A stretch of 64,000 nucleotides of DNA from a virus. Taxonomy: Duplodnaviria > Caudoviricetes. Made by a program: the position numbers and the translations under genes. The first letter of the stretch is position 1; each line of letters begins with the position of its first letter. Positions 2,120-33,318 of the stretch are shown in pieces. The notes below the pieces were generated by a model. That model worked only from the letters and a program-made list of their open reading frames with translations, searched no databases and had not been told where the DNA came from. The DNA lies in the IMG/VR virus record IMGVR_UViG_3300025674_000014. One strand, 5' to 3'.

Positions 2120-2359
2120 ATGAATAGTACAGCAAATAAATTTATTAAAGGTATTCACGCTGAACAATCTGGTAAACGTCTTAAAGCTTTAGCTGATTTA
2201 GAAGTATACCTCAACCAACCGGTTGGTGTAGGGGATCACAGTTTAGTTTCAGACGAAATTGAAAAGATACTTGTTAGAGTTAAAGATTGTGAAGATATAA
2301 TTGCTACTATTGAAAAACATTTTGATTTAACCACCAAAGAAGAAGTAATAAATGAGTAG
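2120..2359 (+). CDS. hypothetical protein (79 aa)
   Basis: Helical ORF with YLNQPVGVGDH core, overlapping the next start; typical small phage protein. Confidence 0.65.
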   Translation: MNSTANKFIKGIHAEQSGKRLKALADLEVYLNQPVGVGDHSLVSDEIEKILVRVKDCEDIIATIEKHFDLTTKEEVINE

Positions 2360-3032
2360 TAAAGTTTTAATTGCATCAGCAACATCTAAAAAAGATGAAA
2401 CTGAAACTCATCTTTTTAAGAGTCTTGAAGATCATGTAGAAGATATAGACCTTATTATTAAAACTGATAATAAAAAAGGTTTATGTCAGGTTTATAATGA
2501 GATTTTAGATGCTGAAGGCGATAAATATGATGCTATTATTTTCTGTCACGATGATGTGACAATTGACTCAAATAATTTCGTTGATAGAACCCTTACGGGG
2601 TTACAAACATATGATGTAGTTGGTGTTGCCGGTGGTAGCAAAATAAAGAAAAACACTCCTATTTTGTGGCATTTAATGACTGATAAAATGACACATAGTG
2701 GTATAGTTTTTCACCCTCATCATGAATATAAAGAGTTTTGTTTTCCTACTACCTTTGGCCCCAGACCTAAAGAGGTAGCTGTATTAGATGGGGTTTATCT
2801 TGCAGTTAAACCAAAAACTTTATTTGAGAAGGAAATTAAATTTGATGAAAACATAAAAGGCTTTCATCATTATGATATTAAGTTTAGTATCGATTGTAAG
2901 CTTGCAGGATTATCACTCGGTACACTTGATATTAACATAATTCATCAATCACCAGGTCTGGATGTATATGATGACGCGTTTAAAGACTCTGAAAAATATA
3001 TGAAAGAGTTTTTAAACGAAATTATGACCTAG
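2352..3032 (+). CDS. glycosyltransferase family 2-like protein
   Basis: KKGLCQVYNEIL...IIFCHDDV...VVGVAG...VAVLDGVYLAV...FDENIKGFHHYDIKFS: DxD-like HDD and GFHxYD motifs. Confidence 0.8.
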   Translation: MSSKVLIASATSKKDETETHLFKSLEDHVEDIDLIIKTDNKKGLCQVYNEILDAEGDKYDAIIFCHDDVTIDSNNFVDRTLTGLQTYDVVGVAGGSKIKKNTPILWHLMTDKMTHSGIVFHPHHEYKEFCFPTTFGPRPKEVAVLDGVYLAVKPKTLFEKEIKFDENIKGFHHYDIKFSIDCKLAGLSLGTLDINIIHQSPGLDVYDDAFKDSEKYMKEFLNEIMT

Positions 3033-6661: not shown

Positions 6662-7420
6662 ATGCGAATTTGTGTTATACCAGACCTACATAACAAAATT
6701 GATGTAGCGGATTATATTATTAACGAAGAGGATGCACATGTAGATGAGTTCGTTCTACTTGGAGATTATTTCGATGATTACAATGATACACCTGAAGATA
6801 ACAGAGAGACAGGTTTGTTTATCAATGAATTTATCAACAACGATAAGTTTAAGTTTTTGATTGGTAATCATGATCTTCATTATATCATTAATCATACTCC
6901 ATATCAGTGTAAAAATAGCTACGATGAAGAAAAATTTAATTCTATTAATGAAGTTGTTTCCGAAGATGCTTGGGAAAAAATGGTCTGGACCCATATTAGA
7001 GATAAATGGTTATTTTCACATTCTGGTATTATCGCTACAGATGGAGTGTTCAATCAAGATGAACACGACGGTAACTTAAATCTAGAAATTCAAAATGTTA
7101 TTGAAGCTAATCTCCCTGTTTCACCTAAACTTGGTTATGGTGGTACATACTGGAGAAGAGATTGTGAAGATGAACTACCTTATGCCGAAGCAGAAAATTT
7201 TAAATACAATCAAATGTATGGTCATACTGTACTTGCTAAATGGGATTGCACTCAATATGTAGGGTATAGAGCTTATAATATTGATACGCATATGCAATAT
7301 TATGCTATTATTAATACGGAGAATGATTATGTTGAGATCAAACGAACAAATTATACACATAGGTATTGGCCTCTTGAAGTAAAATGGTTACAAAAAACAG
7401 ATCAGATAAAAAATTTGTAA
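6662..7420 (+). CDS. calcineurin-like metallophosphoesterase
   Basis: IPDLH, LLGDYFD, LIGNHD, FSHSG and YGHT are the five conserved metallophosphoesterase motifs. Confidence 0.9.
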   Translation: MRICVIPDLHNKIDVADYIINEEDAHVDEFVLLGDYFDDYNDTPEDNRETGLFINEFINNDKFKFLIGNHDLHYIINHTPYQCKNSYDEEKFNSINEVVSEDAWEKMVWTHIRDKWLFSHSGIIATDGVFNQDEHDGNLNLEIQNVIEANLPVSPKLGYGGTYWRRDCEDELPYAEAENFKYNQMYGHTVLAKWDCTQYVGYRAYNIDTHMQYYAIINTENDYVEIKRTNYTHRYWPLEVKWLQKTDQIKNL

Positions 7421-8004
7421 GTCTATCAGGACCGAGTTGTTCAGGTAAAACTACTTTGGTTAATGCTGTAAACTGGTCTGATTACTTTAAAGATTATCAT
7501 TTAGTAGAATCTCATACTAGGGCTTTGAAGTCTAAAGGTATGCAGATTAATGAAAAGGGTAGCGATGAAACTCAAGTTGCTGTGATGGATATTCATCATA
7601 GTAATTATGTAAAGTTTGATACTAAAAGTAATATCAAATCATTTATAACTGATAGGTGTGTTTTAGATGGTATTGTTTATACTGAATGGTTAGCTAATAC
7701 TGATAGGATTCATAGTAATATTCTTAGTTATGCAAGTAAGATATTTATGGATGTAAAAGATAAAATTGATATTTTATTCTATTGTGAACCTGTTGAGTAT
7801 AAGGATGATGCAGATAGAAAATTATCTAAAAGAGATCATGAAATAATTTGTAATTTATTTGAGTCTTATATTGGTATGTTTGATTTGAATCAAGTAGTAA
7901 GACTTAGAGGTTCAGTTGAAGAACGATTGAAGATTATAGATAACAAACTAAAATTTAACAAAGTTAAATTAACTACAGAAGATATTTTATTATGGAACAA
8001 CTAG
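7384..8004 (+). CDS. P-loop NTPase, nucleotide-kinase-like (AAA_28/NadR-type)
   Basis: Walker A SGPSCSGKTT, ITDRCVLDGIVYT, and DxxR lid motif (DDADR). Confidence 0.75.
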   Translation: MVTKNRSDKKFVSLSGPSCSGKTTLVNAVNWSDYFKDYHLVESHTRALKSKGMQINEKGSDETQVAVMDIHHSNYVKFDTKSNIKSFITDRCVLDGIVYTEWLANTDRIHSNILSYASKIFMDVKDKIDILFYCEPVEYKDDADRKLSKRDHEIICNLFESYIGMFDLNQVVRLRGSVEERLKIIDNKLKFNKVKLTTEDILLWNN

Positions 8005-8885
8005 ATAACACAAACATTAGTACACACCTAGGTCAGAGTAGTCAGTATAAGTCGCAATATGACCCTGGATTGTTGGTAAGAGAGCCTCGTCAAAGTAACC
8101 GTTCATATCTTGATATTCAAGATGACAATCTACCGTTTGTAGGTTATGATGTATGGAATGGTTATGAAGTATCTGCTTTGACTAATAACGGTAGACCAGT
8201 AGCTGCAATTGCTAAAGTAATTTACCCGTGTGATAGTAAGTATATCGTTGAATCAAAGTCTATGAAACTATATTGGAATAGTTTCAATATGACCAAGCTT
8301 GGTGATACATCTCAGGATGTGATGGGTGAAATTGAAAAGAGAGCTATTGAAGACCTATCAAACTTTCTTGAAACAAACGTAAGTGTTCAATTGTTTTTCG
8401 ATGATACAGAAATTGAAGAAGGTTTAGACTTTTCTGTTATTGAAAATATCGATATTACAGTTGGTCAAGACGTTGTATTTGATACTTATAACGAAACCCC
8501 TGAACTGTTAGAAGTAGAAGAGCATGATGAGCCTCAAGATATTAATTATATTTCTGGCTTGTTGAAGTCAAATTGTAGGGTAACTTCACAACCTGATTGG
8601 GGTGATGTATACATTTACATGAGAGGTAATAAAGTACCCACTAAAGAATCACTTCTAAAGTATATCGTATCATTTAGAGATGAATGTCATTTTCATGAAG
8701 AGATTTGTGAATGTATTTATAAGAGACTATGGGATACTTTCTCTCCCGAAGAGTTATCTGTAATGTGTTTATATGTTAGAAGAGGTGGCTGGGACATTAA
8801 TCCTCATAGGTGCTCCCATGAGCATCTTTATAATGAGCTTATATTCGATATAGGTAAGATCTTTCCTAAGCGTCCTAGACAATAG
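7992..8885 (+). CDS. queF: NADPH-dependent 7-cyano-7-deazaguanine (preQ0) reductase, bimodular type
   Basis: LGQSSQYKSQYDPGLL N-terminus, QueF motif IVESKSMKLYWNSF, catalytic LLKSNCRVTSQPDWG, FHEE, and YVRRGGWDINP. Confidence 0.92.
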   Translation: MEQLDNTNISTHLGQSSQYKSQYDPGLLVREPRQSNRSYLDIQDDNLPFVGYDVWNGYEVSALTNNGRPVAAIAKVIYPCDSKYIVESKSMKLYWNSFNMTKLGDTSQDVMGEIEKRAIEDLSNFLETNVSVQLFFDDTEIEEGLDFSVIENIDITVGQDVVFDTYNETPELLEVEEHDEPQDINYISGLLKSNCRVTSQPDWGDVYIYMRGNKVPTKESLLKYIVSFRDECHFHEEICECIYKRLWDTFSPEELSVMCLYVRRGGWDINPHRCSHEHLYNELIFDIGKIFPKRPRQ

Positions 8886-12120: not shown

Positions 12121-12795
12121 TTACCGTCCAATTTTATCTAAAAAGTCAATAATTTGGTCTCTTAAATAATCATTCAATTCTTTTTTAGGTAAAGTTTTAA
12201 TACTTTCTTCGAATGTATCATAAGATTCTTCCCATCTTCCATCCTTAGCTAACACAAATTGCTTAGATTCTAATATACCATTTACGAATGCTTTTGGGCA
12301 AGAAGGATCGGATACACAATCAACTGCAACCAATCTCATTTCAGAAACTCTACTAACACCGGGTCTGGTTTTTTCTTCAGATAATTGACCTAATGCCCTT
12401 GAGCTCATACCGACTTTTACACCGTCATTGATTAAACTCTTAACGATTTGACCACATGGAGTAGAAAGTACTTTTGACTTACCATAGAACATATTACCTT
12501 CTGACCATAAGTCAGTTACCATATGGCAAGCACGTTCTAGGTCAACTTCAGCAGATGTTGGATGGTTTAATTCACCCATACTTCTGTTCTCATTAACCAT
12601 TTCTCTCATATAACGATCAACTTCACGTTGTAGTTCGTCTCTGGGATAGAATCGTTTGTTACGGTTAACGTCTTCAGCCATCATGTAAGGGCCTTTGATA
12701 TAAAGCGTTTGACCTGAGCCAGTGCTTTTCTCTTCGACGATGTACTCAAAAGCCTCTTTAGGCGCCGGATTTTCAACTAATAATCTGAAAGACAT
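12121..12795 (-). CDS. gp21: prohead core protease
   Basis: LYIKGPYM..EDVNRNKRFYP, SMGELNHP, GMSSRALG, VDCVSDPS..AFVNGILE. Confidence 0.95.
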   Translation of the reverse strand: MSFRLLVENPAPKEAFEYIVEEKSTGSGQTLYIKGPYMMAEDVNRNKRFYPRDELQREVDRYMREMVNENRSMGELNHPTSAEVDLERACHMVTDLWSEGNMFYGKSKVLSTPCGQIVKSLINDGVKVGMSSRALGQLSEEKTRPGVSRVSEMRLVAVDCVSDPSCPKAFVNGILESKQFVLAKDGRWEESYDTFEESIKTLPKKELNDYLRDQIIDFLDKIGR

Positions 12796-12797
12796 CT

Positions 12798-12812
12798 TAT
12801 TTATTATTTATA
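12798..12812 (-). promoter_or_regulatory. tandem T4-late-like promoter motifs (TATAAATA + AATAAATA)
   Basis: Minus strand TATAAATAATAAATAAG-ATG; a perfect T4 consensus TATAAATA lies at 12805-12812. Confidence 0.65.
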
Positions 12813-12828
12813 CTATAATTTAATTTTT

Positions 12829-13263
12829 TCAGCAATTAAGCTCTTTTTCTGTAAGTATTTTGAACTCAATACCTTTTTTCTTAGCCCATTTTTCTGCTGC
12901 TTCCCACTTAGCTTGATTAACAACCCACGTTTTTTGCTCGTAAAGCATTGTGCTTTTACGTTTATATTTTTTAGGTTGTGGAGCCTTGACTTGTGAGGAG
13001 GGTTTTATTTCAATTAGGTAAGTTTTGGTACCTGTTGATTCTTTTATAGATATAAGACCATCAACGAAATAACGGTGAATCCTACCATCTAATGGGCTTT
13101 GATAAGGGATAATTACACCTTCACTGTTCCATGCAACAATGTTTGGATTACAGTCGCACCAACGGAAAAATTTTAACTCCCACCCTGATCTGTAAACTGG
13201 TAAGGACTTTCCTTTATATTTTTCCCTCAGTTTTGGTCTAAAAACTCCTTGTTTAAAAGGCAT
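12829..13263 (-). CDS. gp4: head completion protein (TnsA-like endonuclease fold)
   Basis: FKQGVFRPKLREKYKG...YRSGWELKFFRWCDCNPNIVAWNSE...IPYQSPLDGRIHRYFVD...IEIKP...NQAKWEAA. Confidence 0.92.
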   Translation of the reverse strand: MPFKQGVFRPKLREKYKGKSLPVYRSGWELKFFRWCDCNPNIVAWNSEGVIIPYQSPLDGRIHRYFVDGLISIKESTGTKTYLIEIKPSSQVKAPQPKKYKRKSTMLYEQKTWVVNQAKWEAAEKWAKKKGIEFKILTEKELNC

Positions 13264-21721: not shown

Positions 21722-24325
21722 TTAGTTTTCTCTTCTATCTTCAGCTTTGTAATATTCAAACCTTTCATGATAGCAAGGAGTTGCTAATAGAATTGCAGGT
21801 TTAATATGTCCCTTAACTGTTTGCTGATAAATGTATGACATCCAAGTTTGTTCAAACGGTGCTGCCCATTTCTCTTCAAGGAACATCTTCTTATTACCTT
21901 CTTTTGAAACTAACTGAGGCCAGTTACAATAGAATACCTCTCCATCAATGTAAGGTAAACCGTCCATATTGTAAATATGATTGTATTTAACTAATGGAGC
22001 GTTAGGATCTAAACCGTTAGCCGGTAAATATTTCTTTTCTGGCCATACTTGCTCTCTCAGTTCTTGAGGTACATTATACCAAGACCATTGAGTACGATTA
22101 TCTCCAAAGAATTCAGTAAAGCAGAATTTAAGCAAATCAAATCCATGCTTTTCCATAATCTTGTGAGTCTTATCAAACAAGTTAGGTATATATCTTCTAA
22201 AACCACTTTCACAATAACCAACTTCTTTATCGTGAATATACATATCATCTTCAAGAAAGATATAATAATCACCGTCTGTCTTGTCAAAGTGTTCGGCTAC
22301 CCACTGTCTACCTCCGCAAATACCGATATTATCTCGTTTATGCTCTGTAAAATTATAAAGATCAAAAATAGCTTCATAATCAGCATCAGTAGATCTATCA
22401 GTCGAATTATTCAATACAACTTTTTCACATTTCTCAAACCATTTATCAGTAGTTGACCAATTTTCACAAAGTCTTAAGAATTGAGCAGGTGAATTATAAG
22501 TGATCACGTAAAGATATGTCTTAAGATCTTCAATAGGTCTAGTTTTTCTCGTCGTGATTAACTCAACGGTATCATTTTTTAGATGCTCAAAGAAACATTC
22601 AAACAGACCGTCATCTCTGATCATGGTTCTGTCTACTAAATCTTCATGTTTGTAAGTCAAAATAGTGAATACACTCTCTTCTGTACCCATTTGACCTTCA
22701 TCTAATGAATTTTTTAAGTAATCGTAGTAAAGACTATTAACTTTTGGTATATAATCCTTATGACCACCAAATACACCTGCTCTTGCAACGCGGGTTGTCT
22801 TATCTACATTACAATATGTGCGTAATCTTTCATGATCAAAGCCATGAATTTCATAATTTTCGTACGGAAAACATACGAATAAAAATTTCTGCAAGTAATG
22901 ATGAATTTTATTAATAACTTTATCGTGAGTAAAGTACCCTTGATGAACTGTACTAGTAATACCACCATCAACCCATAAGAAATAATCGGTATTAAATGGA
23001 TTTGAAATAGCAGCATCATTGAGTAAAAACATCTTACTCATTACCATTGGATTATACAGTTCTAACCCAGCCTGAGTACTCTCTGCGAGCCAGGATGCTT
23101 TGTTATACCAGTCTGGGTTAGAACGAATCTCTTGTACTTTGTCGTAGAATTCAAACCAAGTTTTAAACTCCTCAGCTTCTTTAATAATAACACTAGTGTT
23201 ATCCCTACTTCTACGCTCCCATACGAAATCTTCATGTGCTTTTCCGATAAAAATAATCATCGGAGCATCAGTTTTTAATAGTTCATCAAATTTATCTAGA
23301 TAATGTTGGAATGGTCTATTAAACCCTCCCTCCATTTCTCCACGTTTAAGGTCCCAAATACCAGTCACTATAGTCGTTTTAGAAGGTCCTTCGTTAGATA
23401 TTGTTCTCTTTGGTTCTTCTTTGTCTTCTACTATAGTTCCATCTTGGAAATAATCACCTTCTTCAACGTTTTCAGGTACATCTATAAAGTTACCATCGGC
23501 ATCGTTTCTAAAACCATTACCTTCAACGCAAAGGCCAAGTTTTTCAACCTCAACCCAACGTCTATTTGTCTTAAATTTCTCAATCTCACTACTATGGAAA
23601 GCCATAATATCACAACCTTCCTGATTAGTAAGAATGTAACCTGCAGCAATTAACCTATCAAATAGTTTAACTAACTTATCTTCTTCATTATTGAATAACT
23701 CAAACTTAATTACTTTAGGTAAGTATTTTTCTAAAGTAAATCCTAAAAACACTTCATAATCAAAACCTTCTGTATCAACTGTACAGAAATCAATCTTTTC
23801 AATACCGTGTTTTTCTAATAGTGAATCAGCAGTAACTACATCTACTTCAATAAGATCACCGTGTTCTTCAAGTAATGCTTTAGTTTCAGCATCTGTTTCA
23901 AAGCCATTTTTAGGTGGTATAAAAGAACCCATACCTACAATAGCTTCATGTAAACCATCTGATTCAATCTTACTCCATGGAATGTAACACATTAGCTCTT
24001 TTCGTTCAGTATCTGAAACAGCTACATTCTCCGTAATACAACCTTCTGGTAATTCAGTGGTTACATACTTTGTAAGTGCTTTAAATGCATCAGGTATTGG
24101 TTCAACGAACATACCTCTCCATTTATATGTTACCATATATGCAGAAATAGTATCATGAAAAGTACCATCACAAGAACCAATCGATAGATTGAACATAGGG
24201 TCGCCTTTTCGACCATAGTGATGCAAAATTATATCATAAATTCTCTCGACTTGCCAGGTGTTGAATTTTGTTGAAATTCTACCTTCATAGTCATCCCCTA
24301 CTATATGATTGTGAATATTACTCAT
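21722..24325 (-). CDS. three-domain glycan-processing protein: FkbM methyltransferase + HtrL/YibB (WlaTC)-like + GT-A-like domain
   Basis: N-terminus IGSCDG...FVEP...IDFCTVDTEGFDYEV (FkbM); middle TTIVTGIWDL...YLDKFDELL...MSKMFLL...FLWVDGGI...GTEES (HtrL-like); C-terminus NIGICGGRQWVAEHF...YYIFLEDD (GT-A-like). Confidence 0.75.
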   Translation of the reverse strand: MSNIHNHIVGDDYEGRISTKFNTWQVERIYDIILHHYGRKGDPMFNLSIGSCDGTFHDTISAYMVTYKWRGMFVEPIPDAFKALTKYVTTELPEGCITENVAVSDTERKELMCYIPWSKIESDGLHEAIVGMGSFIPPKNGFETDAETKALLEEHGDLIEVDVVTADSLLEKHGIEKIDFCTVDTEGFDYEVFLGFTLEKYLPKVIKFELFNNEEDKLVKLFDRLIAAGYILTNQEGCDIMAFHSSEIEKFKTNRRWVEVEKLGLCVEGNGFRNDADGNFIDVPENVEEGDYFQDGTIVEDKEEPKRTISNEGPSKTTIVTGIWDLKRGEMEGGFNRPFQHYLDKFDELLKTDAPMIIFIGKAHEDFVWERRSRDNTSVIIKEAEEFKTWFEFYDKVQEIRSNPDWYNKASWLAESTQAGLELYNPMVMSKMFLLNDAAISNPFNTDYFLWVDGGITSTVHQGYFTHDKVINKIHHYLQKFLFVCFPYENYEIHGFDHERLRTYCNVDKTTRVARAGVFGGHKDYIPKVNSLYYDYLKNSLDEGQMGTEESVFTILTYKHEDLVDRTMIRDDGLFECFFEHLKNDTVELITTRKTRPIEDLKTYLYVITYNSPAQFLRLCENWSTTDKWFEKCEKVVLNNSTDRSTDADYEAIFDLYNFTEHKRDNIGICGGRQWVAEHFDKTDGDYYIFLEDDMYIHDKEVGYCESGFRRYIPNLFDKTHKIMEKHGFDLLKFCFTEFFGDNRTQWSWYNVPQELREQVWPEKKYLPANGLDPNAPLVKYNHIYNMDGLPYIDGEVFYCNWPQLVSKEGNKKMFLEEKWAAPFEQTWMSYIYQQTVKGHIKPAILLATPCYHERFEYYKAEDRREN

Positions 24326-25670
24326 TATAAATTCCGTTCGTTATTTCATGTTTTGAGTGAGGTAAGTGGATAGGGTGTGGACCAATTCTATCTAACCAAC
24401 CTTTGCTAGCGCTGTGAGGTAACACAGCCCATGATTTAGGTTCTTTTTCACTGCAGAACTTCAAAAAGAAACTTGCAGCATCTTTGGCACATTCTTCATC
24501 AATACGCCATCTACCTAAGTCTTCTCTAAAAATTTCTTCACCATCTGCATCATGAGCTGTACAACACCAGAAATCACAATCAGCATGATCAGGTGTTGTG
24601 ATATCTGCATTAGCTATCCAAATATCTACACACCAGTTCCTACCAAATGCATTCTCCCAATCTTCTTTAGATGCAAATATTTCTGGATTATCTTTATAAT
24701 TAGGTGTTGGTGGCTCGTTTAACTGAGGCCAAGTATACTCCATAACACCTCTTCTATCGAATTTGATACCTGTATAACATTCAAACTCTTCTAAAGTACG
24801 TTCAGTACCGAAACCATACTTACCAAAGTCAAATGTTTGTTCTGTTTCATCCATTCCAAATAAAGTTCTGTTTCTGAAATGACACGCATTATTAACAGAT
24901 GACCAACCATAACTACTACCTGAATCTACATCATGGTCATCCCAATGTTTATCTCTTCCCTCTCTAGTATATTCATGCCAAGCAATAAGCTTATGAGGGT
25001 GAAATAGATCATAACCATGGGTAAATGCTCTTGCTGCAATGCTAATCTCTTCTCCATGAAAATAATAATCAGGATCGTGAGGTATCTCAGTACAAAACTG
25101 ACCTAAGGTAAAACAAAAATGAGCAGAATAAAATCTGGATCTCATTGGTTCGGTTCTAACTCTATAATTAGGCATTGTAGCTGGTATAAAGAAAATAGCA
25201 CCTTCTGGAATAAATCTATCAAATTCCATAAACCAAGGATCGTTTTCTCTACCATCGGGGTCATTATGAGGTTTATATGAAGGTAAATATGCAGTAAGTA
25301 AAGGTTTCTTATGACCTTTCTTTTGTAATTGTTTTACCATATCAATGCACAAGGTATCCCAACCTTCTGCAAACCTGTGATGTGAATCTAGCTGAAGGGT
25401 ATATGTTTCGCCTTTATATTCATTCTGAACAATATTTCTAGCCCAACATACACCTCTGGCTTCTTTCCAATCTACATCGATAATTCTAAATCGTGGGTCG
25501 TTTTCAAACTCTGGAATTTCATCAAACGTATCACCTGGCTTAAATTGTCTACAAATACCAAATCTTAAATTCTCTGGTTTATTTGCATTATTAATACAGT
25601 CGTGTAACGTTTTAGGTAATTCTGGGTCTCTATACGAAGCAATTTGTATAAAAATAGTTTCTTCTTTCAT
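24318..25670 (-). CDS. GT60-like UDP-GlcNAc:polypeptide N-acetylglucosaminyltransferase (GlcNAc family)
   Basis: IFIQIASYRDPEL, RGVCWAR, QLDSHHRF (DSH metal motif), LLTAYLPSY, FYSAHFCF, YYFHGEEISIAARAFTHGYDLFHP. Confidence 0.85.
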   Translation of the reverse strand: MKEETIFIQIASYRDPELPKTLHDCINNANKPENLRFGICRQFKPGDTFDEIPEFENDPRFRIIDVDWKEARGVCWARNIVQNEYKGETYTLQLDSHHRFAEGWDTLCIDMVKQLQKKGHKKPLLTAYLPSYKPHNDPDGRENDPWFMEFDRFIPEGAIFFIPATMPNYRVRTEPMRSRFYSAHFCFTLGQFCTEIPHDPDYYFHGEEISIAARAFTHGYDLFHPHKLIAWHEYTREGRDKHWDDHDVDSGSSYGWSSVNNACHFRNRTLFGMDETEQTFDFGKYGFGTERTLEEFECYTGIKFDRRGVMEYTWPQLNEPPTPNYKDNPEIFASKEDWENAFGRNWCVDIWIANADITTPDHADCDFWCCTAHDADGEEIFREDLGRWRIDEECAKDAASFFLKFCSEKEPKSWAVLPHSASKGWLDRIGPHPIHLPHSKHEITNGIYNE

Positions 25671-25688
25671 AGCATCCTGTTATTATGT

Positions 25689-27215
25689 TTACTTTGGATC
25701 AACAATATCTTTAGTAATCTTATCTAACCAACCATTATTATGGGTGTAAGGTATTACTGTATATGATGCAGGTGTTTCAGGGCATGTCAATGACATAGGA
25801 AATCTAGCTGCATATGGATCTTGTCTCTCGTCGTAAATTTCTTGAATCTTACCAATGTCGTAATCTTCTCTCTTTAGCTCCTTACCTTCTGCATCATGCA
25901 CACCTACATACCAAAACTCAGTATCTTCATAAGTCTCAGGTAACTCATCCCAAGGGACAAAGAAGTCTATACACCAGTTCTTACACCATTCTGTTTGATC
26001 ATGAGGTGTAATATTTTCATAACTAGGGTTTTTATAATCTCTACAATCAGGAGAAATAGCTCTTAGTTTAAAATTAATACCAGCGTACTCTTCATATTGT
26101 TCTACTGTTCTAACTTTACCAAACCCATATTCATCCCCGAAGTTAATTTGATTAGGATCTTCACCATCCATACCAAACAGAATACGGTTACGCTTATGAC
26201 ATTGATCATTTACTTCATACCAGTCATATTCTCTACCGCTTGATCTATTATTATCATCCCAATGGTGAGGTCTACCTTTTCTTGTATATTCATGATATGC
26301 AATAATCTTATGAGGATGGAATAAATCATACCCGTGAGTAAAAGCTCTTACAGCAATACTAATCTCTTCACCGTGGAAGTAATAATTAGGGTCGTGAGTT
26401 ACTTCTTTACACATCTTACCAGATGCAAAAGCAAAGTGAGCTGAATAAAATCTACTTGGAATAGGTTCTCTTTGTTCGTCTCTTTCCATTGACGTGGGTA
26501 AAAAGAACATTGCACCTTCTGGAATGAATCTATCGATAATCATCTTCCAAGGATCTACTTCAAAACCATTAGCAAGCGTACGTTCACCTGTACCGTCTTT
26601 AAATTCTAACCAAGGTTTATAGCTGGTTATGTAACCGGTAAATAGTGGTTTTTCGTGACCTTTATCTTGCATGTAATAATACATGCTTTTCATTTCTGAA
26701 TCCCAGTGATCTACAAATCTATGATGTGAATCAATTGCTAAAGTAAATTCATCTTCACACCATAAGTGTTGTAATGAATGTCTAGCCCAGCATGTACCGT
26801 GACCTCTTCTAGCATCTACTTTAATTACTTGAAATCTATCATCATTTTGCATGAATTCGAACATGTCCTTATCATATTCATCATCTGGGTGCCATTGCCA
26901 GCAGATACCAAATCGTAAATTTTCAGGGTTATCAGCCCTTTTAATCATATCTTTAATAGTTGGAATGAGTTCAGGGTCTCTATATGCAGCAATCTGAACA
27001 AAAATACGTTGATTACCTTTTCTATTTGGATCTACACTTTCATGGTAATATGTACCTACTTTATCCCAGGATTCATTTGTTTGTTGTTTACCTGGGGTGC
27101 TAATTTGTAATGAAGGGGTATCTTGTTGTGAATGTTGTACTTCTACAACTTTTTCACTACTAGTACTTTTTACAGACTTTAATCTATTTTTCCTAACAAT
27201 CTTAATACCTGGCAT
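25689..27215 (-). CDS. second GT60-like polypeptide GlcNAc-transferase paralog
   Basis: IFVQIAAYRDPEL, HGTCWAR, AIDSHHRF, FYSAHFAF, YYFHGEEISIAVRAFTHGYDLFHP; about 68-aa N-terminal extension. Confidence 0.85.
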   Translation of the reverse strand: MPGIKIVRKNRLKSVKSTSSEKVVEVQHSQQDTPSLQISTPGKQQTNESWDKVGTYYHESVDPNRKGNQRIFVQIAAYRDPELIPTIKDMIKRADNPENLRFGICWQWHPDDEYDKDMFEFMQNDDRFQVIKVDARRGHGTCWARHSLQHLWCEDEFTLAIDSHHRFVDHWDSEMKSMYYYMQDKGHEKPLFTGYITSYKPWLEFKDGTGERTLANGFEVDPWKMIIDRFIPEGAMFFLPTSMERDEQREPIPSRFYSAHFAFASGKMCKEVTHDPNYYFHGEEISIAVRAFTHGYDLFHPHKIIAYHEYTRKGRPHHWDDNNRSSGREYDWYEVNDQCHKRNRILFGMDGEDPNQINFGDEYGFGKVRTVEQYEEYAGINFKLRAISPDCRDYKNPSYENITPHDQTEWCKNWCIDFFVPWDELPETYEDTEFWYVGVHDAEGKELKREDYDIGKIQEIYDERQDPYAARFPMSLTCPETPASYTVIPYTHNNGWLDKITKDIVDPK

Positions 27216-27249: not shown

Positions 27250-30200
27250 TTAGTTAATACATTTTACTTTATAATCAAACCATTCTTGATGTAAACGAAC
27301 ACAGTTAATGCAAGCTGAATTATGAATACAAGCAGCATTATTAACATTAAGAAATGCAATTCCTACAAATTGTCTTGTTGAACCCCATAAATTTAAACAA
27401 GAATCATTAAAATCTAGCTGTTTACAAACGGTTACTACTTGATTAGTAAAAGTATTTGGCATGTTTGCGCCTATACTACACCATATTATTCCGTTACCAA
27501 AGCTAAATAAATAACATACCGGGTAATTACTACTAGTGTTATTTCCATAAGATACATTTATTTTATAATATAAACAATCAATCATACTCATACAGTAATT
27601 AGAACTACAAACTGAACATTTTACCATACATGCCTTATTTGCCATCATAGGAATGCAATTTGTACAACACATTGTATAATAGGCATACCACCCACCATCA
27701 CTTCCCGGAAGACAAATATTATGTACATATTGACCTCCGCATGTAAAACCACATGTGGTGTTTCTACAACAATAAGCTAATGAATAATTTTCACACCCTA
27801 CATTTGCCAATATGTATTTACAACCGCAACCCCAACATAAACTAGTTGAATCATAACCGGCACAAAGATATTTGTCACACATATTATCTATATGATAATT
27901 ACTCCACCAATTAGATTGCCATGCATAAATACATCTACCTGAATATCCGCAATCATAAAGATTAGCTAATGCACATAAATTACATGTACTACAAGCGGTA
28001 TAAATAGCAGGCATCCAAGAATCATGTTGAGTATACCCAGACGGTTTTGGAGCACACCAACACCAATATAGAGGTGTACCTGAAGCTCGACAATTGTTTA
28101 CGTAATAACTATAAGTAAAACAATTACTACTATCTGCCAACATATTTGTAGTTGCAAATGTCATAGCAGGGTTATATACTTCACAAGAATAACAAAATTT
28201 TATACATTGACCGGTAGTTAAAGTAGAATAATCTACAGAACATGTTATAGTGCTATATGAAGATACGTTAGAGTTAATAGTAGGGTAGTTATATGTAGCT
28301 TTAAATGTACCAGCGCTACAAAAATAAGGGTCACACCCATATGTAATAAACCCGCCAAATGGAAAACATATTTTCCATGTCCATCCAAAAACACAAGAAG
28401 TGCTTATACATCTAACTTTATACCCGTAACCACTGGTTGGTGTACCCCAGGGTAATATATAGGTGTTAGAAGTATTACCATAATTGTCTGTTCTACTTGT
28501 CCACCAAGGGTGCGCTTTTGCTTGATTAAAGCATCTAAATCCTTGCGTACCTGTACATTTTGTTTCGGGCATTAAATTAGTACAAGCATAACTACCGCTG
28601 GTATAATTAGCACAGGTATAGCTAGTTATTGTTGGACAAGTCGCGCCTGAACATATTAAATCAGTTACACTTGAACATTCATTAGGCACGGGAGGTGTGC
28701 TCGTAACTGTGGGTGTTCTTGTCTGTGTAGGTGTATGTGTACTTGTTCTGGTCGGCGTTCTCGTCTTGGATTCTGTAATAGACTTCGTTCTGGTTGGTGT
28801 TCTTGTCTTCGTTCTAGTACGTGTAGGTGTATAGGTTGGTGTTCTTGTACGCGTAGGTGTTCTTGTTCTCGTGTTAGTAGGCGTTTGTGTACGCGTACGT
28901 GTGTAGGTTGGTGTTCTTGTACGTGTACGTGTACGTGTTTGGGTTGGTGTTCTCGTACGTGTACGTGAATGTGTAATAGATTTCGTTCTGGTTGGTGTTT
29001 GTGTACGTGTAGGTGTACATGTTCTCGTGCGTGTATAGGTTGGTGTTCTCGTACGTGTACGTGATTGTGTAATCGACTTCGTTCTGGTTGGTGTTCTCGT
29101 ACGTGTAGGTGTTTGTGTACGTGTACGTGTTTGGGTTGGTGTTCTCGTACGTGTACGTGATTGTGTAATCGACTTCGTTCTGGTTGGTGTTCTCGTACGT
29201 GTAGGCGTACATGTACGTGTTCTTGTTCTCGTACGTGTAGGCGACTGGGTTGGTGTTCTTGTACGTGTAGGTGTTTGTGTACGTGATCTTGTACGTGTAC
29301 GTGTACGTGTAGCTGATTGAGTTGGTGTTCTTGTACGTGTAGGTGTTTGTGTACGTGTTTGGGTTGGTGTGCGCGTTCTAGTAGGTGTTTGTGTACGTGT
29401 CTTAGTTCTTGTTTGCGTTCTCGTACGTGTATAGGTTGGTGTTCTTGTTCTCGTACGTGTATATGTAGGAGTTTGTGTACGTGTATTTGTTGGTGTACGC
29501 GTACGTGATGCTGTACGTGTCGGTGTTTGTGAACGAGTAGGTGTTTGTGTACGTGTACGTGTTGCTGATCTGGTCGGTGTGCGTGTACGTGTACGTGTCT
29601 GTGTAGGTGTTTGTGTACGTGTTTGTGTTCTCGTTCTACTTGGTGTAGGTGTTTGTGTTATTGATTTAGTACGTGTAACGGTTGGTGTTCTTGTACGTGT
29701 TACAGCTGGTGTTGCTGTTCTGGTAGGTGTTCTTGTACGCGTAGCTGTCTGAGATTTTGTTCTCGTTTGCGTAGCTGTACGTGTATTTGTTGGTGTTTGC
29801 GTACGTGTCGGTGTTTGTGTACGTGTCTTAGTTCTTGTTCTCGTACTCGTAGCTGTTCTCGTATTAGTAGCTGTCTGCGTATTAGATTTTGTTCTAGTAG
29901 CTGTTGGCGTTTGTGTACGTGTCTTAGTAGCTGTTCTAGACTTAGTACGTGTTGGTGTTTGCGATCTCGTACGTGTATTGGTTGGTGTTTGCGTACGTGT
30001 AGCTGTTTGAGTGTTAGATTTCGTTCTCGTCTGGGTTGGTGTTCTTGTACGCGTACGTGTAGATGTTTGTGTTGCTGTACGTGTTGATGTTGGTGTTTGT
30101 GTTCTGGATCTTGTACGTGTACGTGTCGGTGTATTTGATCTCGTACGCGTACGTGTAGCAGATTGTGTAGGTGTTTGTGTACGTGTCTTAGTTGACGTAT

Positions 30201-33200
30201 TAGTAGCTGTCTGCGTTGCTGTCTTAGTGTTTGTTGGTGTTGGTGTTTCAGTACGTGTTCTAGTACGTGTTCTTGTGGGAGATTGTGTTCTCGTTGGCGA
30301 TTGTGAACGTGTTCTTGTAGGTGTCTGTGTTCTTGTTCTTGTAGACGTTCTTGACTGTGTAGACGTTTTCGTCTTTGTAACTGTATTAGTACGTGTGTTT
30401 GTAGGAGTTTGTGTTCTTGTCTGCGTTGCTGTCTGCGTTGCTGTCTTAGTGTTTGTAGGTGTTTGTGAACGCGTACGTGTTACCGTTTCTGTTGCTGTTC
30501 TGGTAGACGTTCTTGTTTGTGTGGCTGTTCTTGTTCTCGTTGGCGTTTCTGTGCGTGTACGAGTTGGTGTACTACTACGTGTTTTAGTATTTGTAGCGGT
30601 TTGTGTGGTTGTTCTAGTGCTTGTCTTAGTAGGTGTATGTGTTCTAGTAGGTGTTTGTGTACGTGTTCTTGTATTAGTTTCGGTTCTTGTCTGCGTATTT
30701 GTTCTTGTAGATGTAGGTGTTTGTGTATATGTAGGTGTTGATGTTCTTGTATTTGTAGCGGTCTGCGTGTAAGTTGATGTAGATGTTCTTGTGTTAGTAG
30801 CAGTTTGGGTATTTGTTTTTGTTTGTGTTGGTGTTCTCGTTGATGTTTGAGTTGATGTTTTAGTAGATGTTCTTGTTTGTGTGGCTGTACGTGTGTTAGA
30901 TTTCGTTCTCGTTTGTGTGCGTGAACGTGTTTGCGTAGCAGTTTGTGTTGCCGTACTTGTAGGTGTTTGTGTTCTTGTACGTGTACTAGTAGCGGTATTT
31001 GTAGGGGTTTGTGTTCTTGTACTTGTACTGGTTTTGGTATTTGTTGGTGTTTGTGTTCGCGTACGTGTATTTGTTGGCGTTTGTGTACGTGTTTCAGTTG
31101 GTGTTTGTGTACGCGTACGTGTATTTGTTGCTGTTTGAGTAGGGGTTTGTGTTCTTGTTTGCGTTGGTGTCGGATAACGTGAAACAGTTGCAGTAGATGT
31201 TTGTGTGTTCGTTCTCGTCTGTGTAGATGTTCTCGTCTGCGTAGACGTTCTTGTCTGCGTAGATGTTCTTGTATTGGTTGGTGTTCTTGTACGTGTACGA
31301 GTGTTAGTTGCTGTTGGCGTTTGTGTACGTGTACGTGTTTGTGTATTTGTACGTGTATTTGTCGGTGTTTGTGTTCGTGTACGTGTACTAGTATTTGTAG
31401 GTGTTTGTGTGCGTGTACGTGTTTCTGTTGGTGTAGGCGTTTGTGTTCTCGTTCTTGTCTGAGTAGCAGTTCTTGTCTGTGTTGATGTACGTGTGTTAGT
31501 AGCGGTTTGCGTAGACGTTTGCGTAACCGTTCTCGTATTAGTAGCTGTTTGAGTAGCTGTTTGTGATGACGTTCTTGTTTGTGTTGGTGTACTTGTAGCT
31601 GTTCTAGAAGCTGTCTGGGTAGGTGTTCTAGTACGTGTAGCTGTCTGGGTTGGTGTTCTAGTTTGGGTTGGTGTGCGTGTACGTGTTACGTCAGGTGTAT
31701 CTGTTTGACTTGGTGTTCTCGTAAACGTAGGTGTTCTTGTTTGTGTTCCGGTCTGCGTTGATGTTGGTGTTTGTGTACGTGTACGTGTTTGTGTATTTGT
31801 TGGTGTTTGGGTGCGTGTACGGGTTTGTGTACGTGTACGTGTATGTGTTGGTGTTTGCGTTCTTGTCTGCGTCGGTGTTTGTGTACGTGTACGTGTGTTA
31901 GTAGATGTTTGTGTATTTGTTTTTGTTCTTGTTTGAGTAGCTGTTCTTGTCTGCGTAGATGTTCTCGTCTGTGTTGGTGTTTGTGTTCTCGTCTGAGTCG
32001 GTGTTTGTGTACGTGTACGTGTTTGTGTGTTTGTTCTTGTCTGTGTAGGTGTTTGTGTGCGTGTTCTTGTCTGCGTACGTGTACGTGTATTAGTAGCTGT
32101 TTGTGTGTTTGTTCTTGTCTGCGTAGATGTTCTCGTCTGCGTAGATGTTCTTGTCTGTGTTGGTGTTGGATAACGAGAAACCGTGCTCGTAGCTGTTCTG
32201 GATTGGGTAGCTGTTCTAGTTTGAGTATTTGTTCTCGTCTGGGTATTTGTTCTTGTTTGTGTTGGTGTCTGAGTACTTGTTCTTGTCTGAGTAGCTGTTC
32301 TTGTCTGCGTACGTGTACGTGTTTGTGTTCTTGTCTGAGTAGCTGTTCTCGTCTGAGTAGCTGTTCTCGTTTGAGTAGCTGTTCTAGTATTAGTTGGTGT
32401 TTGTGTACGTGTTTGTGTAGCTGTTTGTGTGTTTGTTCTCGTTTGTGTTGCTGTTCTCGTTGGTGTTTGGGTACGTGTACGTGTACGTGTACGTGTTTGA
32501 GTAGGTGTTTGTGTTCTCGTTCTAGTGTTAGTAGGAGTTTGTGTTCTTGTTCTAGTTGATGTATTAGTAGCTGTTCTTGTTTGTGTAGATGTTCTTGTAT
32601 TGGTTGGTGTTTGCGTTCTTGTAGGTGTTTGTGTTTGGCTTGCTGTTCTCGTACTTGTTGGTGTTTGTGTACGTGTACGTGTATTTGTAGGTGTTTGAGT
32701 TCTTGTTCTTGTCGGTGTTTGCGTTCTTGTTCTAGTATTTGTTGGTGTTTGCGTACGTGTACGTGTACGTGTATTGGTAGCTGTTCTTGTTTGTGTAGAT
32801 GTTCTTGTTTGTGTCGGTGTTTGTGTTCTTGTTTCGGTAGCAGTTTGGGTTGGTGTCCTTGTCTGCGTAGCTGTTTGAGTAGGTGTTTGTGTTCTTGTTC
32901 TCGTTGGTGTTAATCTAGGTAAGTCAAATCTATGACGTAATGCTGAGTAACTAGCTTCTATTTGATTTTCAGTTAATGCATCGTTGTATACTTTAACGAT
33001 AGCAATTTCACCGTTCATATCTCTAACTGAACCATAACTTTTACCAACGCTTAACAATGTTTCTGATGTATTTCTGCTAGAAGGTATCGAAACGGTACCT
33101 TCAAGATCAGCATTGAAATACATTTTCATATTAGAGCTATCAACAGTTATTGCAAATTGGAACCAACCGGTTGATGTGGTAAGAGCTGTTGGCATTGTAA

Positions 33201-33318
33201 TGGTGTAAGAAGAGCCACCAAGTATTAAATTAGCATATAACTTATTGCCTACAGGTAATCCTGAACGCTCTTTTTGCACTAATAACCAATTGCTTGAATC
33301 CCCCACATAAGTAAACAT
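27250..33318 (-). CDS. C-terminal segment of the giant mucin-like fibre protein (its frame is open back to ~33432)
   Basis: Begins mid-LamG domain, followed by a ~1400-aa (T-X)n stalk and a Cys-rich C-terminal region; the sequence upstream of the Met continues the homologous domain ([20 protein letters not shown]). Confidence 0.8.
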   Translation of the reverse strand: MFTYVGDSSNWLLVQKERSGLPVGNKLYANLILGGSSYTITMPTALTTSTGWFQFAITVDSSNMKMYFNADLEGTVSIPSSRNTSETLLSVGKSYGSVRDMNGEIAIVKVYNDALTENQIEASYSALRHRFDLPRLTPTRTRTQTPTQTATQTRTPTQTATETRTQTPTQTRTSTQTRTATNTRTRTRTQTPTNTRTRTQTPTRTRTQTPTNTRTRTQTPTSTRTASQTQTPTRTQTPTNTRTSTQTRTATNTSTRTRTQTPTNTRTRTQTPTQTRTRTRTRTQTPTRTATQTRTNTQTATQTRTQTPTNTRTATQTRTATQTRTATQTRTQTRTRTQTRTATQTRTSTQTPTQTRTNTQTRTNTQTRTATQSRTATSTVSRYPTPTQTRTSTQTRTSTQTRTNTQTATNTRTRTQTRTRTQTPTQTRTNTQTRTRTQTPTQTRTQTPTQTRTSTQTRTATQTRTKTNTQTSTNTRTRTQTPTQTRTQTPTHTRTRTQTRTRTQTPTNTQTRTRTQTPTSTQTGTQTRTPTFTRTPSQTDTPDVTRTRTPTQTRTPTQTATRTRTPTQTASRTATSTPTQTRTSSQTATQTATNTRTVTQTSTQTATNTRTSTQTRTATQTRTRTQTPTPTETRTRTQTPTNTSTRTRTQTPTNTRTNTQTRTRTQTPTATNTRTRTRTPTNTRTSTQTRTSTQTRTSTQTRTNTQTSTATVSRYPTPTQTRTQTPTQTATNTRTRTQTPTETRTQTPTNTRTRTQTPTNTKTSTSTRTQTPTNTATSTRTRTQTPTSTATQTATQTRSRTQTRTKSNTRTATQTRTSTKTSTQTSTRTPTQTKTNTQTATNTRTSTSTYTQTATNTRTSTPTYTQTPTSTRTNTQTRTETNTRTRTQTPTRTHTPTKTSTRTTTQTATNTKTRSSTPTRTRTETPTRTRTATQTRTSTRTATETVTRTRSQTPTNTKTATQTATQTRTQTPTNTRTNTVTKTKTSTQSRTSTRTRTQTPTRTRSQSPTRTQSPTRTRTRTRTETPTPTNTKTATQTATNTSTKTRTQTPTQSATRTRTRSNTPTRTRTRSRTQTPTSTRTATQTSTRTRTRTPTQTRTKSNTQTATRTQTPTNTRTRSQTPTRTKSRTATKTRTQTPTATRTKSNTQTATNTRTATSTRTRTKTRTQTPTRTQTPTNTRTATQTRTKSQTATRTRTPTRTATPAVTRTRTPTVTRTKSITQTPTPSRTRTQTRTQTPTQTRTRTRTPTRSATRTRTQTPTRSQTPTRTASRTRTPTNTRTQTPTYTRTRTRTPTYTRTRTQTRTKTRTQTPTRTRTPTQTRTQTPTRTRTPTQSATRTRTRTRSRTQTPTRTRTPTQSPTRTRTRTRTCTPTRTRTPTRTKSITQSRTRTRTPTQTRTRTQTPTRTRTPTRTKSITQSRTRTRTPTYTRTRTCTPTRTQTPTRTKSITHSRTRTRTPTQTRTRTRTRTPTYTRTRTQTPTNTRTRTPTRTRTPTYTPTRTRTKTRTPTRTKSITESKTRTPTRTSTHTPTQTRTPTVTSTPPVPNECSSVTDLICSGATCPTITSYTCANYTSGSYACTNLMPETKCTGTQGFRCFNQAKAHPWWTSRTDNYGNTSNTYILPWGTPTSGYGYKVRCISTSCVFGWTWKICFPFGGFITYGCDPYFCSAGTFKATYNYPTINSNVSSYSTITCSVDYSTLTTGQCIKFCYSCEVYNPAMTFATTNMLADSSNCFTYSYYVNNCRASGTPLYWCWCAPKPSGYTQHDSWMPAIYTACSTCNLCALANLYDCGYSGRCIYAWQSNWWSNYHIDNMCDKYLCAGYDSTSLCWGCGCKYILANVGCENYSLAYCCRNTTCGFTCGGQYVHNICLPGSDGGWYAYYTMCCTNCIPMMANKACMVKCSVCSSNYCMSMIDCLYYKINVSYGNNTSSNYPVCYLFSFGNGIIWCSIGANMPNTFTNQVVTVCKQLDFNDSCLNLWGSTRQFVGIAFLNVNNAACIHNSACINCVRLHQEWFDYKVKCIN
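28690..32910 (-). repeat. (Thr-X)n low-complexity coding stalk, approx. bounds
   Basis: Thr/Ser at every second residue; 6-nt periodic DNA, GT-rich on the + strand. Confidence 0.9.
28942..29229. repeat. three tandem 96-bp coding repeat units
   Basis: A 72-bp identical stretch at 29038-29109 and 29134-29205 (period 96), plus a diverged copy from 28942; encodes TPTRTKSITQSRTRTRTPT. Confidence 0.85.

Follow-up and report, generated by a model that had tools for sequence, protein, structure and literature searches.

A C-terminal beta-sandwich module of tandem phage GT60 glycosyltransferases and its possible role in acceptor targeting

The 64,000-nucleotide (nt) stretch of viral DNA analysed here, referred to as the window (IMG/VR record IMGVR_UViG_3300025674_000014; Duplodnaviria, Caudoviricetes), contains at 24318-27215 two adjacent genes whose products, P0001 and P0002, are glycosyltransferases of the GT60 family. 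In both proteins the catalytic domain is followed by a homologous C-terminal part, and the locus raises the question of what this part is and what it may do for the enzymes that carry it. A prediction made earlier from the sequence alone (the original prediction) had described it as an unrecognised domain of ~95 amino acids (aa), possibly analogous to the lectin domain of the eukaryotic polypeptide GalNAc-transferases (ppGalNAc-Ts). Our analysis revealed that this module is separable and mobile, being present also on HtrL-type and sulfotransferase-like enzymes of the same gene cassettes; its conserved sequence signature and the domain-specific divergence of the tandem paralogues are likewise new. 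Recognition of a shared acceptor is the most economical candidate for its function.

The two enzymes and their C-terminal module

Both open reading frames (ORFs) foreseen at this locus were confirmed, as members of PF11397 on the minus strand. The proteins and their parts are located in the window as follows.

24318..25670, minus strand: P0001, GT60 paralogue 1, 450 aa (PF11397 (GlcNAc), E 1.9e-69; PHROG 24687 at residues 4-429)
24759..25670, minus strand: catalytic GT-A domain of P0001, residues 1-304 (Pfam range), with the IASYRD, DSH (DxH) and FHGEE motifs
24645..24758, minus strand: linker of P0001, residues 305-342, without regular secondary structure in the AlphaFold2 model until a short helix at 335-340
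24372..24644, minus strand: predicted C-terminal beta-sandwich module (C-dom) of P0001, residues 343-433 (AlphaFold2, structure comparison)
25689..27215, minus strand: P0002, GT60 paralogue 2, 508 aa (PF11397, E 3.7e-65; PHROG 24687 at residues 70-503)
27012..27215, minus strand: N-terminal extension of P0002, residues 1-68 (alignment of three orthologues)
26070..27011, minus strand: catalytic GT-A domain of P0002, residues 69-382 (Pfam, BLASTP)
25707..25985, minus strand: predicted C-terminal beta-sandwich module of P0002, residues 411-503 (alignment with the P0001 module)

P0001 and P0002 score 235.3 and 221.1 bits against PF11397 (cut-off 21), and the model stops at residue 304 in the former and at residue 382 in the latter. 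The BLASTP alignment of the two proteins (47% identity, 444 residues) runs through the C-terminus. The motifs quoted in the original prediction, namely, IASYRD/IAAYRD, DSH (residues 95-97 in P0001 and 162-164 in P0002) and FHGEE, are all present, as are the quoted C-terminal strings. Since every family-invariant residue is kept in both proteins, their sequences suggest that P0001 and P0002 are probably active enzymes.

The AlphaFold2 model of P0001 (alignment A1) has a predicted local distance difference test (pLDDT) score of 90.4 for the whole protein and a predicted template modelling (pTM) score of 0.89. Its linker is modelled at pLDDT 94-98, and this high confidence suggests that the linker would lie ordered on the catalytic domain. 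The closest solved structure of the catalytic fold is ppGalNAc-T1 (Z 21.5 over 285 aa), and Foldseek matched the catalytic domain with ppGalNAc-T2/T4 (E 3e-9). Dictyostelium Gnt1 (Q8T1C6), a Skp1-hydroxyproline alpha-GlcNAc-transferase that also belongs to GT60 and PF11397, is a structural match to residues 1-321 of P0001 (E 5.8e-24, TM 0.61-0.65). The DxH motif has been described for both GT27, the family of the ppGalNAc-Ts, and GT60, and the two families group in one clade (PMC7185993); the fold match of the P0001 catalytic domain agrees with both observations. The sugar transferred by P0001 and P0002 would probably be GlcNAc rather than GalNAc.

The common C-terminal domain is real and comprises ~91 aa (residues ~343-433 in P0001 and 411-503 in P0002). 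When the two modules alone are aligned, 33% of residues are identical over 90 aa (E 5e-17), a similarity far beyond chance. Neither Pfam nor NCBIfam has a model that hits this domain, even at E ≤10, and no description of it was found in the literature on GT60, PF11397, phage O-glycosylation and virion glycosylation; the databases treat the protein as one undivided glycosyltransferase, in which the module is unrecognised.

Structure prediction and structure search, the approach that had been proposed for the module, pointed with confidence to a beta-sandwich of the fibronectin type III (FN3)/immunoglobulin (Ig)-like class. Folded alone by AlphaFold2, the P0001 module reached a pLDDT of 91.6, and its model consists of six long strands and a short one, together with helices at ~354-357 and 387-394; a helix interrupts the succession of strands 3 and 4. 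A Foldseek search of the PDB with the module alone found nothing at E ≤0.001. In the exhaustive structural alignment the best matches were FN3 domains, with a root mean square deviation of 2.7 over 85 aa, 3-14% identity and Z 7.7, a value within the range given by the tool for models that have no true relative; further matches were Ig-like domains of GH2 and GH76 enzymes. The FN3 profile of Pfam (PF00041) does not match the module at E ≤10. The safe statement from these models is that the module would be an FN3/Ig-like beta-sandwich with no specific relative.

The lectin domain of the GT27 enzymes is of the ricin-B/CBM13 type, a three-fold repeat of ~40 aa with QxW motifs and a total length of ~120-130 aa. 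No Q-x-W motif or internal repeat is present in the module sequence of P0001 or P0002, and the Pfam Ricin_B model does not match the module at E ≤10. The size of ~91 aa and the missing three-fold repeat and QxW speak against a ricin-type lectin; the lack of beta-trefoils among the top structural matches of the module, which are all FN3/Ig-like, is not in itself proof against a trefoil. Therefore, the proposed analogy to the ppGalNAc-T lectin holds for the position of the module, behind a GT27-like catalytic domain, and does not extend to homology or to the modelled fold. The two systems are also alike in the DxH metal motif, in an extra domain located C-terminally to the catalytic domain, in the existence of multiple paralogues and in the initiation of dense Ser/Thr O-glycosylation of repeat proteins, which for the phage enzymes is a prediction. 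However, the accessory domain of the ppGalNAc-Ts is a beta-trefoil lectin, whereas the phage module is modelled as a sandwich of 6-7 strands, and the phage enzymes are soluble, cytoplasmic proteins with no signal anchor. The lectin function has been demonstrated for GT27, and a comparable function of the phage module is putative.

Two residues of the module, R382 and D384, show no variation in any of the enzyme contexts (alignment A3). Near-invariance is seen at F367, W368, P411 and P418 and at position 417, a Trp that is replaced by Leu in P0001. R382 and D384 occupy positions i and i+2 of one strand and point to the same side as I380, a conserved hydrophobic residue; positions 381, 383 and 385 are variable. 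A sugar-binding site formed by R382/D384 and F367/W368 was considered and not adopted, as this alternation along the strand is just as compatible with a buried structural pair.

The module could be a purely structural appendage, a rigid beta-sandwich which binds no substrate and serves to stabilise the catalytic domain, to keep it soluble or to act as a spacer. A buried salt bridge would give the pattern seen for R-x-D, in which both residues lie on one strand face together with a conserved hydrophobic one. The pTM of the two-domain model and the pLDDT of the linker imply the fixed arrangement that such a role would involve, and FN3-like domains of glycoside hydrolases, the source of the GH2 and GH76 matches, are commonly structural. 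The distribution of the module and its divergence between the paralogues, described below, point the other way.

Distribution of the module among phage and bacterial enzymes

The module is not peculiar to the tandem pair and occurs family-wide in phage and bacterial GT60s. At least 7,985 homologues of P0001 were found in a search of 5.8 billion proteins; a typical one is 417 aa long, is 53-55% identical and covers 94-95% of P0001, so that the module is included. The profile of PHROG 24687 'glycosyltransferase' (409 positions) contains the module at positions 323-405. Relatives are encoded by at least 588 IMG/VR contigs, and in the 80 IMG/VR phage loci that were fetched each of the GT60 ORFs (81/81) carries the module. 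Full-length homologues that include it are encoded by the jumbo phages XacN1 and Xoo-sp13 and by the Stenotrophomonas phages CM1 and RAS14, also jumbo phages (44-47% identity over residues 5-430), in XacN1 with the same downstream carbamoyltransferase cassette; unlike in the window, these are single copies rather than a tandem pair, and they are annotated as undivided glycosyltransferases. In a genome collection, a homologue was found in 151 bacterial species, mostly Acidobacteriota, Verrucomicrobiota, Bacteroidota and Gemmatimonadota, and most bacterial GT60 homologues also carry the module. One 11.7-kb contig of a Gemmatimonadota metagenome-assembled genome (L087) encodes a protein that shares 83% identity with P0001 and falls within the phage clade, and probably represents phage DNA binned into this genome.

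The family is overwhelmingly viral, as seen from the IMG/VR contigs and from the ESM Atlas clusters with this fold, which are 80-95% Viruses, and in the window the genes sit among virion genes. This setting would suit a module that targets the enzymes to a phage assembly intermediate, such as a folded fibre or baseplate domain, and not to a repeat or a glycan. However, the module is found equally in the chromosomes of Acidobacteriota, Verrucomicrobiota and Bacteroidota, where there is no virion, and its core residues are conserved although the neighbouring virion proteins vary widely between phages. Targeting to an assembly intermediate is thus very improbable.

The original prediction had left room for the domain being part of the ordinary GT60 fold, and the comparison with module-less relatives shows that it is not. 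Gnt1 (423 aa), which modifies a single Hyp on a folded protein, matches residues 1-321 of P0001 with its residues 1-409 and has nothing equivalent to the C-terminal beta-sandwich. The module is also missing from complete GT60 ORFs (300-365 aa) of the bacterial loci L136, L159, L160, L162 and L164 and from the second copy in L109. Since these proteins do without it, the module is a true add-on, separable from the GT60 catalytic fold, and the natural occurrence of the catalytic domain alone argues against a purely structural role. The C-terminal part of the bacterial GT60 of L154 consists of radical-SAM and PqqD domains instead of the module, and those of L127, L133 and L151 have different, unassigned C-terminal tails.

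The module also occurs on enzymes of other families. A hidden Markov model (HMM) of the module was iterated on all ORFs of 166 loci, and its sole match outside GT60 was the protein encoded at L031:11415-12545, which belongs to HtrL_YibB (PF09612, E 1.1e-28) and contains the module at residues 275-374 (E 3e-18). A homologue search with this protein showed the module immediately behind the HtrL domain in ~47 cluster representatives (E 1e-12 to 1e-24). These carriers are 355-374 aa long, or ~600 aa with the architecture HtrL-Cdom-GT25, where Cdom denotes the module; plain HtrL proteins of ~265 aa lack it. Alignment of the GT60-module profile with one HtrL carrier by hhalign gave a probability of 97%. 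In P0139 (320 aa, found on two independent contigs) the module follows an N-terminal domain with weak, sub-threshold sulfotransferase matches. The HtrL fusions surfaced only with the HMM built on the loci, and not in the phmmer search with a single module sequence against 1.8 billion representatives, which returned 60 matches, mostly fragments or GT60s. The best match of the module among AlphaFold Database clusters is a 360-aa 'Glycosyl transferase' (residues 267-360) with dimensions like those of the HtrL fusions, size being the one property compared, and a feature search of the ESM Atlas that excluded PF11397 gave nothing usable for the module.

Three further carriers were observed: P0147 (200 aa), with the module behind an OmpR-type winged-helix DNA-binding domain; P0178 (215 aa), with the module behind an unassigned N-terminal part; and P0128 (134 aa), possibly a stand-alone copy. 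They may be real architectures or artefacts of gene calling or assembly.

In the tested multi-domain proteins the module stands directly after the catalytic domain, with P0147 and possibly the stand-alone P0128 as exceptions, and this placement would suit a structural appendage. However, the preceding catalytic domains belong to different Pfam families (GT60 and HtrL), and in one case the preceding domain is sulfotransferase-like, which makes a common packing surface unlikely. Moreover, in every cassette opened (L031, L169, L170, L167 and L168) the second module carrier is encoded on the same strand and in the same cassette as a module-bearing GT60. Within cassettes the module thus marks two enzymes of one pathway and not random enzymes, which counts against a purely structural role.

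The presence of two module carriers per cassette could also mean that the module is an assembly domain, in which homotypic or heterotypic contacts between modules join the GT60 and the later cassette enzymes, or both paralogues, in a multi-enzyme complex. The GT-A enzyme TarS forms trimers through C-terminal beta-sandwich domains, and its catalytic domain is among the structural matches of the P0001 catalytic domain. Fusion proteins of the types GT60-Cdom-GT60-Cdom, GT60-Cdom-HtrL and HtrL-Cdom-GT25 show that these enzymes work together; GT60-Cdom-PqqD and GT60-Cdom-TPR fusions were also seen. However, the module is kept in fusion proteins though their enzymes are already joined covalently, and most phage cassettes have it on the GT60 only, a second carrier being found only in L031 among the 160 scanned loci. 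We therefore regard a role in enzyme assembly as unlikely.

A PqqD-like peptide-recognition domain is fused to the bacterial GT60s P0135, P0148 and L154:5908-8394, the last of which also has a radical-SAM domain. These fusions point to glycopeptide pathways of the type of ribosomally synthesised and post-translationally modified peptides that use GT60 enzymes.

Divergence of the tandem paralogues

A maximum likelihood tree of 96 sequences was built with FastTree and rooted at the midpoint. Proteins of the P0002 type (from the window, L006 and L007) form a clade which is the sister of the clade of P0001-type proteins (from the window, L006, L007 and L087). This relationship implies that the duplication is confined to this phage lineage and predates the phages compared. 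Bacterial GT60 pairs fall into other, separate clades, so the pairing has arisen at least three times independently.

The catalytic domains and the modules have diverged to different extents, as the following identities show (residue numbering in this comparison may be off by a few positions).

Orthologues: catalytic domain identity 77-81%, module identity 74-77%
Paralogues: catalytic domain identity 57-59%, module identity 33-39%

For P0001 and P0002 themselves the modules are 33% and the catalytic domains 57% identical, and the identity of the linkers between paralogues is 19-25%. In sequence terms, divergence of the modules between the paralogues, combined with equal constraint within each type, fits what specialisation of the module would give. 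A stabilising or spacing sandwich would hardly be expected to diverge selectively between paralogues and yet to be conserved like the catalytic domain among orthologues. Weighed with the distribution data, a purely structural module appears rather improbable, though more credible than an assembly domain.

A 65-70 aa N-terminal extension is found in the P0002-type proteins of the window, L006 and L007; it opens with the conserved motif MPGIKIxRK and continues as a variable stretch of low complexity. No such extension is present in P0001 or in homologues that occur as single copies, and it might be a peptide for targeting or tethering. P0026 (431 aa, from a metagenomic cluster) resembles P0001 and P0016 in its N-terminal two thirds and P0002 in its C-terminal third, including the module, and is either a natural recombinant of tandem paralogues or an assembly chimera.

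The putative acceptor and the role of the module

The window is part of an uncultured T4-like phage. Its structural genes include those for a major capsid protein of the Gp23 type (PF07068, E 5.8e-89), which is only ~33% identical to the capsid proteins of cyanomyoviruses, and for a T4-type scaffold protein; a prohead protease S77 and a gp5-like OB domain are encoded as well. The minus strand carries nearly every long ORF between 3022 and 63853, and the GT60 pair sits among virion genes. Three of its neighbours are relevant here.

33408-57473, minus strand: giant ORF with LamG-like domains, Cys-rich parts and a very long Thr-x alternation
27250..33318, minus strand: giant ORF, likewise with LamG-like domains and Cys-rich parts, whose product of 2,022 aa includes ~1,400 residues in Thr-x alternation
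21722..24325, minus strand: fusion of FkbM methyltransferase and HtrL_YibB (867 aa, Pfam), located downstream and overlapping the P0001 stop by 8 nt

The end of the 27250..33318 ORF is separated from P0002 by 34 nt, and the gap between P0002 and P0001 is 18 nt. The same order of a giant Thr-x ORF and a GT60 pair is found in L007, the closest relative. Among the 75 phage loci with enough upstream sequence, 26 have a long [T/S]-x alternating ORF which ends 45-291 nt before the GT60 gene on the same strand. Such Thr/Ser-alternating ORFs are rare: all loci together contain 4,344 ORFs with a length of 100 aa or more, only 74 of which are of this type, and most of them lie near GT60. A Thr-alternating neighbour was found for 0/10 module-less bacterial GT60s vs 15/63 with the module, a sample too small to mean anything. 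The product of the 27250..33318 ORF is likely the acceptor of the GT60 pair. In protists, the Golgi polypeptide alpha-GlcNAc-transferases TcOGNT-2 and DdGnt2 transfer alpha-GlcNAc onto Thr-rich mucins, and GT60 enzymes are known to add alpha-GlcNAc to Thr of Trypanosoma cruzi mucins (PMC3769586). DNA, which is glucosylated by T4-type phages, was considered as an alternative acceptor and rejected in view of the GT60/GT27 clade and the recurrent adjacency of Thr-repeat genes.

The reading that we favour, plausible although somewhat short of probable, is that the module represents a shared acceptor-targeting module that holds each enzyme on its acceptor. P0001 and P0002 would be soluble GT60 polypeptide GlcNAc-transferases whose genes are co-transcribed downstream of that for a giant virion protein, and would most likely O-glycosylate the Thr-x stalk of this protein in the host cytoplasm. 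Because the module sits on GT60, HtrL-type and sulfotransferase-like enzymes of one cassette, it may recognise something common to them, either the repeat polypeptide or its first sugars, and would thus work like the ppGalNAc-T lectin domain on an unrelated fold. The two paralogues, products of a duplication in the phage lineage, differ mainly in module and linker, and these differences fit different acceptor preferences. Accessory domains that read the acceptor or prior glycans include the POMGNT1 stem domain and the FUT8 SH3 domain; these, like the TarS domains, are set beside the module as functional precedents only, each being a small non-catalytic domain on a GT-A or GT-B enzyme, and no relationship to the module in sequence or in specific structure emerged for them.

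Several observations weigh against acceptor targeting. The pTM of 0.89 and the confidence of the linker suggest rigid packing of the module on the catalytic domain, unlike that of a tethered lectin, and the R382/D384 pattern suits a buried pair as well as a ligand site. The resemblance to FN3 domains is a match at the level of fold only, and in carbohydrate enzymes such domains often serve as no more than spacers. The addition of a peptide-binding PqqD domain after the module in some bacterial GT60s suggests that the module alone is an insufficient peptide binder. The FkbM/HtrL_YibB fusion at 21722..24325 gives no match to the module even at E ≤10. Finally, a burst of relaxed constraint after the duplication would look similar to specialisation of the modules.

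A more far-reaching form of acceptor targeting is possible but doubtful. It holds that the module is a new family of acceptor-reading domain, with GlcNAc-alpha-Thr or extended (T-x)n strands as possible targets, on successive enzymes of a cytoplasmic mucin-type O-glycosylation in phages and some bacteria; the module would have converged, on an FN3-like scaffold, with the catalytic-plus-lectin logic of the ppGalNAc-Ts, and the paralogues would be specialised for the naked and the glycosylated stalk. If true, this would be a clear case of convergence with the lectin arrangement of the animal enzymes. Protein O-glycosylation in phages is barely characterised, while GT60 genes are found on hundreds of phage contigs, often right behind those of mucin-like virion proteins. 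The module offers a handle on how the cassette enzymes find and densely decorate repeat stalks, its FW...RxD...WP...GW signature is a search key for further enzymes of the pathway, and the domain is itself a small candidate binder of GlcNAc-Thr or repeat peptides. If the module is only structural, the finding shrinks to a domain annotation.

Phage GT60 cassettes have a shared gene set, seen in L002-L004 (~12168-13251), L005, L169, L170 and L001 (XacN1), which comprises a carbamoyltransferase, two ~270-aa unknown proteins and HtrL/DUF3431 or FkbM-HtrL enzymes. In L002-L004 a UDP-galactopyranose mutase (GLF) is added, which by analogy suggests that galactofuranose may be placed on GlcNAc, as in core 2 of T. 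cruzi mucins (PMC3769586).

Two plus-strand regions of the window complete the picture of its gene content. Another glycosyltransferase (PF13712 Glyco_tranf_2_5, E 2.1e-14) is encoded at 2352-3032, on the strand opposite to the GT60 cassette and outside it. At 6662-8885, genes for a metallophosphatase, an AAA_28 protein and a two-domain QueF-like nitrile reductase adjoin the capsid genes, which suggests 7-deazaguanine (preQ-type) metabolism and possibly DNA modification.

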